This document shows, in pieces, positions 18,920-19,071 of a stretch of DNA of 35,529 bases. The stretch lies in the NCBI GenBank assembly GCA_963721685.1, contig CAVRJJ010000001.1, positions 369,950-405,478 of the forward strand, given 5' to 3'. The stretch is from an uncultured bacterium. Its GTDB lineage: Bacteria; Patescibacteriota; Saccharimonadia; UBA4664; SCTI01. Made by a program: the position numbers and the translations under genes. The notes under the pieces are model-generated. The model saw nothing but the letters and a program-made list of their open reading frames with translations, had not been told where the DNA came from and ran no database searches. Within the stretch, counting starts at the first letter, position 1, and each line of letters begins with the position of its first letter.

Positions 18920-19071
18920 GTGTCGAATTTCCTGTCATATGTGCAGGATTTTTTGATACTAAGGGCTTACTTTTAAACGCGGGCATTTCAGTAATGAAAG
19001 CTGCACAGTAACGTCCTTACGGCTCGAAAGAACCGTAAATGGGTGAAAAGGAGTTTTTCTTATTTCCCATG
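18920..19071 (+). promoter_or_regulatory. Structured 5' leader, candidate cis-regulatory RNA
   Basis: Four consecutive hairpins, two capped by GNRA loops (GUAA, GAAA); the last pairs the SD and start codon. Confidence 0.6.

Follow-up and report, generated by a model that had tools for sequence, protein, structure and literature searches.

To understand whether the structured leader of a small cell-wall hydrolase gene acts as a regulatory RNA in an uncultured member of the Saccharimonadia, we analysed the window, a 35,529-nucleotide stretch of DNA, together with the genome to which it belongs (986,816 bases in 5 contigs, 97.9% complete; hereafter G000) and related leaders from across the class. 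Almost no RNA-level regulation is known in this phylum. A sequence-only reading of the locus had described a consensus promoter followed by four successive hairpins (H1 to H4), the last of which buries AAGGAG and the start codon of an Rpf-type gene, and had proposed that the leader is a possibly undescribed cis-regulatory RNA that gates translation. The architecture is as described. The promoter scores 11/12 against the consensus, with TG before the -10 element, and sites fitting TTGACA-17-TAnnnT number only 33 in the 987-kb genome; transcription is predicted to start at approximately 18918-18920. RNAfold analysis of 18920-19075 returns H1 to H4 in the expected places with a minimum free energy (MFE) of -47.2 kcal/mol and a centroid identical to the MFE structure, compared with a mean of -32.9 ± 4.1 for 200 dinucleotide shuffles of the leader (z -3.49), none of which folds as well. 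Both AAGGAG (19048-19053) and the ATG at 19069 fall within H4.

The protein encoded behind the leader consists of a signal peptide, a conserved N-terminal module, an Ala/Lys-rich linker and the Rpf domain. PF06737 is the sole domain match, LysM being absent, and the NCBIfam Rpf models score below their cut-offs. Since the methionine encoded at 19069 is invariant in 23/23 aligned orthologues and no in-frame ATG lies upstream in L002, the closest relative, the ATG at 19039, previously raised as a possible start, is not the conserved start codon. This in-frame ATG (19039-19041), located 30 nt 5' of the conserved start, would add the residues MGEKEFFLFP; the ATG makes up the 5' foot of H4, occurs in some relatives only, and its bases read in relatives as conserved RNA (GGGAGAAAGGAG) and not as protein. 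Between the Rpf gene and a convergent gene for a 94-aa membrane protein lies a perfect hairpin with A-/T-rich flanks, which is likely to be a bidirectional terminator. On the other side of the promoter, towards a HIT-family gene, 0.65 kb of the window (17980-18650) has a G+C content of 60-65% in surroundings of ~47%. This segment is unique in G000 and does not align in the same-genus relative L002; it gave no Pfam, Rfam, tRNA or tmRNA match and its ORFs are overlapping and random-looking. The features of the locus are listed in Table 1.

Table 1. Promoter, leader elements, gene and 3' hairpin at the Rpf-like locus (positions within the window).
Feature	Position	Strand	Details
Sigma-70-type promoter	18884-18912	+	TTGACA 18884-18889, 17-bp spacer, TG 18904-18905, TATAGT 18907-18912
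H1, long 5'-terminal hairpin	18920-18959	+	Outer stem GUGUCGAA/UUUGAUAC
H1 inner stem-loop	18930-18948	+	Followed by U-run 18949-18954 (UUUUUU); terminator-like
H2	18962-19017	+	Conserved asymmetric internal loop and apical GNRA loop
UAAACG box	18974-18979	+	Unpaired AAAC bulge in the 5' internal loop of H2
GUAA tetraloop (GNRA)	18991-18994	+	Caps H2; A-U closing pair plus GNRA in 9/9 family members
H3, variable hairpin	19018-19037	+	Structure kept; sequence and loop not kept
H4	19039-19070	+	AUGGG/CCCAU plus AAGGA/UCUU; Shine-Dalgarno (SD) inside, start codon at end
Extended SD AAAAGGAG	19046-19053	+	Pairs with 16S 3' tail CACCUCCUUUCU; ATG 15 nt downstream
Rpf-like lytic transglycosylase gene	19069-19605	+	178 aa, secreted; PF06737, E 2.2e-14
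17-bp hairpin, likely terminator	19603-19641	.	Common to the convergent downstream gene; hairpin scan

The leader has no counterpart in Rfam 15. No match reached the gathering score when the whole window was submitted to cmscan, and at E<=10 a scan of 17800-19300 yielded none in the leader and four weak, unrelated matches outside it. Nothing relevant emerged from 36 related loci either (19 orthologous, 8 paralogue and 9 covering every leader type). The absence of any cmscan match to the leader, even at E<=10, bears out the view that it is not the ydaO (c-di-AMP) riboswitch. The lysM-TM7 motif is among the families that we take to be included in Rfam 15. No published description of this leader was found in searches of the literature on Saccharibacteria and on lysM-TM7. 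Among the sequencing runs listed for this stretch there is no RNA run, and only two soil DNA runs share 0.04 of its words.

The RNA structure is conserved amongst close relatives. Eight members of the window's family each fold unaided into the same four hairpins. A covariance model built from these eight, with the structure set by hand (R1), detects a single copy in G000 (E 8.5e-28, with nothing further at E<=10) and one copy per genome in 8/10 genomes of the family, always directly 5' of the Rpf-like gene. In an alignment of nine distinct members, paired cells amount to 89.7%, compared with 77.0 ± 1.1% in shuffles. Moreover, 27 of the 51 pairs change on both sides, a number reached by 0/500 shuffles and contrasting with 8-16 in slid controls, figures that overstate the support somewhat, given the relatedness of the nine sequences and the use of the structure in fitting the alignment. 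Homologous leaders thus do carry the conserved structure for which the sequence-only reading looked to them. Selection clearly maintains H1, the upper part of H2 and H3 as helices: changes on both sides affect 10/14 pairs in H1, all 7/7 pairs in H3, and 5/7 and 2/3 pairs in the upper helix of H2, with 2/6 pairs at the base of H2 and 0/4 in P2a. H4 is predicted in all eight members folded, with 5/10 of its pairs never varying and just 1/10 changing on both sides; as both strands are constrained as SD or start codon, covariation neither supports nor refutes this hairpin.

Conservation of sequence is concentrated in H2. The TAAAC box is invariant (8/8 and 9/9 family members) and is the top-conserved leader element outside the SD, the other conserved unpaired positions being part of the 3' strand of H2, its GNRA cap (9/9) and the purine tract AAUGGGAGAAAGGAG. 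In total ~25 nt of the H2 internal loop are conserved in sequence, and H1 and H3 keep their shape only. Of the two GNRA loops noted previously, the apical loop of H2 is therefore genuine as a conserved feature and the GAAA loop of H3 is not. A pseudoknot between UAAAC and the H1 loop was considered and rejected, as complementary GUUUAC loops are present in few leaders of family f4 only and, by eye, in none from the window's family. The locus therefore carries an uncatalogued structured RNA leader, kept by its relatives with clear covariation. To this extent the proposal of an undescribed cis-regulatory RNA is upheld by a conserved, covarying leader without an Rfam match, but the riboswitch that it envisaged is unproven.

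The distribution of the leader extends far beyond the window's family. A full-length copy of the small Rpf gene is present in 24/53 genomes available for the order, and the gene is detected at E<=1e-45 in 61/401 sampled genomes of the class, and a metagenome scan for close relatives gave ~6 orthologous loci, 3 of them new. We collected 72 leaders, 61 of which are distinct, and all 61 possess an exact TTGACA, a 17-bp spacer and TAnnnT. Taking the seventh base after the -10 element as the start and excluding one leader that contains N, the MFE hairpin H1 begins at predicted nt 1-5 in 59/60 leaders, within a few nucleotides of the predicted 5' terminus, with nt 9 as its start in the remaining one; its median length is 43 nt and its mean dG -19 kcal/mol. 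The middle of the leader is modular. H2 is followed by H3 in the window's family and stands alone in the f3 and f19 lineages, and the remaining lineages have no H2, with (A)UUAAAC placed immediately 5' of the purine tract. H3 is not present in the leaders of other lineages, and from this distribution we infer that both H2 and H3 are modules added to the leader in particular lineages. At least three Saccharimonadia families keep H2 and its invariant AAAC bulge. The 23 H2-bearing leaders, from three lineages, have the same bulge-plus-helix design with the A-run unpaired, and the helix after the bulge covaries, with many different pair types at its first four pairs, as judged from a scripted bulge-anchored fold (the 3' side of the MAFFT alignment being of insufficient quality). 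The sequence UAAAC or UAAAAC is present in 36/60 leaders compared with 8.2 ± 2.5 in shuffles, a figure inflated by kinship. A scan for the promoter plus UAAACG gave 47 matches in 43/401 genomes, and its reversed-pattern control 18 matches in 17, so only matches that had been inspected were used; one of these, in G085 (L214), was discarded as it has no convincing gene. The leader in the window, H1 to H4, would be the version, specific to the window's family, of a modular leader found in front of these genes across the whole class.

The gene behind the leader is not always an Rpf gene. A weak R1 match in G020 (L210 on G020:C44; E 0.003) is a leader of the same type, having the promoter, an H1 with the CUAUUUGG loop of the window's family and an H2 with UUAAACG, and it precedes a lytic transglycosylase of the MltB/SLT type. 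Homology of the N-terminal module of this protein to that of the Rpf orthologues was considered, and the hhalign match (E 0.0023, probability 12%) is too weak to accept it. In family f4, leaders that lack H2 precede two proteins (L212 on G045:C58 and L213 on G051:C1) that share the N-terminal module of the Rpf orthologues and have a C-terminal domain of the aggregation-promoting-factor type (NF052397, 82.8 bits); a PDB sequence search with the L212 protein gave nothing relevant. The presence of MltB/SLT and aggregation-promoting-factor genes behind the leader implies that it is tied to a family of secreted wall-active proteins and not to the Rpf domain. The gene arrangements suggest that catalytic domains have been swapped behind a constant expression unit, with one leader serving small secreted wall-active proteins (Rpf-like, MltB/SLT-like and aggregation-promoting-factor type) class-wide, and the leader is probably a major point of control over their production. 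Saccharibacteria are epibionts of other bacteria, and the proteins that have been proposed to breach the host envelope include lytic transglycosylases (PMC11665869); secreted peptidoglycan-cutting enzymes are probably the means by which the host cell wall is attacked.

The ribosome binding region of these leaders is unusual in its spacing. The 16S rRNA of G000 ends in ...CACCUCCUUUCU, with which the SD in the window forms a duplex of -8.8 kcal/mol, and duplexes in relatives reach -17. The best complement to the 16S tail lies 13-83 nt from the AUG (median 28) in 60/60 leaders, compared with a spacing of AAGGAG before long ORFs in G000 that peaks at 5-9 nt. A control for the use of a proximal SD in G000 is rough, being confounded by guessed starts and padded segments. 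A stable hairpin fills the gap between SD and AUG in most lineages, and the last MFE helix includes the AUG or ends within 2 nt of it in 43/60 leaders; in the window the 15-nt spacer pairs with the SD itself to form H4. An upstream ORF after the distal SD was considered and discarded, since an ATG is found in some f4 leaders only, is in frame in one and out of frame in others, and is absent in L008.

Sequestration of the SD and start codon by H4, as the gate on translation, is the least supported of the earlier proposals. In addition to its single covarying pair, the predicted cost of opening positions -22 to +3 in the window, 9.6-10.7 kcal/mol, is ordinary when compared with 9.4 ± 3.7 for 71 G000 genes with a canonical AGGAG (rank 31/71). 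The corresponding cost is higher in f19 leaders (14-18 kcal/mol). Moreover, H4 is dispensable in L210, which keeps H1 and H2 and yet has a canonical SD, GGAAGGAG, 9 nt from its ATG. The SD of the window, at 15 nt, may simply be a working ribosome binding site. By eye, no mutually exclusive pairing of H2 and H4 was seen in the window's family, and possible alternatives between the SD and a downstream hairpin were found in the f19 lineage only.

Taken together, these features fit best with a modular leader that mainly governs mRNA stability and translation and in which the AAAC bulge of H2 docks a partner, a reading that we hold tentatively and to which we give a little less than an even chance. 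It is favoured because the consensus promoter, the 5'-terminal hairpin, the distant SD and the helix abutting the AUG are the universal, position-fixed elements. H1 would cap the 5' end of the message against 5'-dependent decay by RNase J and RNase Y, and the machinery for such decay is present, as G000 encodes both RNase J (569.8 bits) and RNase Y (617.6 bits), each above its cut-off; RNase E/G was not found in this 97.9% complete genome. The strong distal SD may hold a 30S subunit, in the manner of STAB-SD, or the intervening helix may bring the SD to the AUG, and H4 would not be a strong OFF switch. The AAAC bulge and GNRA loop of H2 may dock a putative partner, through a protein, ribosome or RNA contact, and so tune output; a specific partner is called for because the bulge is conserved in sequence. 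The gene behind such a leader would be that of a highly expressed secreted enzyme.

Some of these roles have parallels elsewhere. The 5'-terminal stem-loops of aprE and ermC stabilise mRNA in organisms that possess RNase J, and like H1 they stand at the extreme 5' end, stabilisation by H1 being putative. Phage T4 gene 38 has a hairpin-bridged ('split') ribosome binding site. Most Saccharimonadia lineages resemble it in having a stable hairpin in an SD-AUG gap of 20-60 nt, the folding of which could join the two, whereas the leaders of the window's family lack a hairpin between the two, their SD being paired with the spacer. STAB-SD, a 5' element that obstructs RNase J1, makes mRNA more stable in Bacillus (PMC4113751). 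The STAB-SD of cry3A is a strong 16S-complementary tract placed off the initiation distance (PMC4113751); the SD in the window shares the complementarity but, 15 nt from the AUG, may still serve initiation. None of these 5' stabilisers (aprE, ermC, STAB-SD) has a counterpart to the conserved loop of H2. A purely passive stabiliser would leave the sequence conservation of this loop unexplained, a pattern usually seen at specific binding sites, which would also fit a sensor.

A true sensor RNA, in which H2 binds a small molecule or protein and thereby alters how far initiation is blocked by H4, or in other lineages by the SD:anti-SD hairpins, is accordingly the alternative to be weighed first, and we regard it as rather unlikely. 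Its attraction lies in H2, where the conserved, unpaired TAAAC and 3' strand are flanked by covarying helices, the general form of a riboswitch, and where the bulge-plus-helix design recurs across lineages. H2-bearing leaders also carry an SD-complementary pyrimidine tract just downstream, and the opening cost of the f19 ribosome binding site is high. Set against this, most lineages that retain the promoter, H1 and the SD region lack H2, the form of H2 found in the window occurs in front of one gene family only in the R1 searches, and in L210 it coexists with an open canonical ribosome binding site; the pairing by which H2 could control H4 was not seen, and H4 itself has neither covariation nor an unusual opening cost. 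Between stabilising or tuning of the message and a classic riboswitch, the former is the more likely.

The ligands suggested previously, c-di-AMP, c-di-GMP and (p)ppGpp, are disfavoured by the gene content of G000, in which neither the DAC domain (PF02457; the control matched in 11/14 genomes) nor the GGDEF and RelA_SpoT domains were found at 97.9% completeness. CsrA was considered as a partner of the GGA-rich tracts and set aside, no CsrA being found in G000. In Actinobacteria and Firmicutes, rpfA and further wall hydrolase genes are under the control of the ydaO riboswitch. This riboswitch is tied to c-di-AMP (PMC5737381), and although it shares with the leader in the window a long structured RNA and the same kind of downstream gene, the leader gave no match to it and its genome has no detectable diadenylate cyclase domain.

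Cell-wall hydrolase genes are recurrent targets of cis-acting RNA, including ydaO, the orphan lysM motifs and the M23 motif (PMC5737381), and the RNA switch of M. tuberculosis rpfB provides a precedent at an Rpf gene (PMC6009663). The lysM-TM7, lysM-Actino, lysM-Prevotella and M23 motifs are likewise structured 5' UTRs that precede secreted peptidoglycan-active enzymes, and in the passages of Weinberg et al. (2017, PMC5737381) that concern them no c-di-AMP binding was seen. The lysM-TM7 motif comes from the same phylum as the window (PMC5737381). From its description, on which this comparison rests, it differs in preceding TM7 genes with a lysM domain, whereas the gene in the window has no LysM; LysM-Rpf paralogues sit elsewhere in these genomes and their loci have no Rfam 15 match. 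A more specific proposal, that H2 serves as aptamer in an as yet undescribed riboswitch or protein-RNA switch, which would tie wall-cutting enzymes to a wall- or host-derived signal, with H1 adding a termination checkpoint, seems doubtful. If it were true, H2 would be a sensor in bacteria in which synthases for c-di-AMP, c-di-GMP and (p)ppGpp were looked for and not found.

A second alternative concerns H1, which could be a promoter-proximal intrinsic terminator at which most transcripts stop near +40, so that expression depends on leaky or factor-dependent read-through; we consider this unlikely. The inner stem-loop of H1 (18930-18948) with the following TTTTTTGATA scored as terminator-like, and a strict stem plus U-run is present in 33/61 leaders, further ones having bulged stems and then U-runs. 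The other weak match of R1, in G086, proves to be a true terminator that follows a tRNA gene, which implies that H1 resembles the terminators of this clade. In the window the inner stem does have the form of an intrinsic terminator (tail TTTTTTGA), but it is weak, with 6 pairs, 3 of them G-C, and a loop of 7 nt, and in the full hairpin the U-run pairs with the purine-rich 5' arm. A genus-level group of leaders (L173, L174, L182 and L192-L194) keeps H1 without any U-run. Because H1 starts at the predicted 5' end there is no upstream RNA that could compete with it as an anti-terminator, and control would require a trans-acting factor. The closest precedent is the leader of M. tuberculosis rpfB, a transcriptional attenuator with premature termination that is confined to a narrow clade (Schwenk et al., 2018, PMC6009663). 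This is likewise the leader of an Rpf gene, in another phylum. The rpfB terminator follows the switch region, whereas the terminator-like hairpin in the window is the very first element.

That the fold simply reflects composition or chance and has no function is highly improbable, for although short AT-rich leaders often give some MFE structure and 4-5 of 32 other perfect promoters in G000 also show a hairpin near +1, this reading is already contradicted by the covariation counts, along with the folding z-score and a layout conserved in 61 leaders from many families.

Among the other perfect promoters of G000, one outside the window (G000:C1:133043) is followed from approximately +3 by a hairpin with a purine arm and a U-run that resembles H1. 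Within the 17-bp promoter spacer, at approximately -27 to -21, the box CTTRYG (mostly GCTTATG) is present in 43/61 leaders compared with 4/33 other perfect promoters in G000. The spacer of the window's own promoter does not carry it. An inverted CATAAGC box lies upstream at several loci, including one at 18665 in the window. The spacer box may be an operator or may reflect shared descent. As a genome-wide promoter element, CATAAGC/GCTTATG is unconvincing (212 copies compared with 109 ± 59 for permuted heptamers). The promoter, 5' hairpin and strong SD of these leaders could serve as expression elements in the genetic tools now emerging for Saccharibacteria. At two metagenome loci (L117 and L119), LysM-Rpf paralogues have a promoter of their own, TTGACA-18-TACTGT, followed by a hairpin of an A-run and a U-run; these leaders gave no Rfam match and may be of the lysM-TM7 type or a third relative of the design described here.
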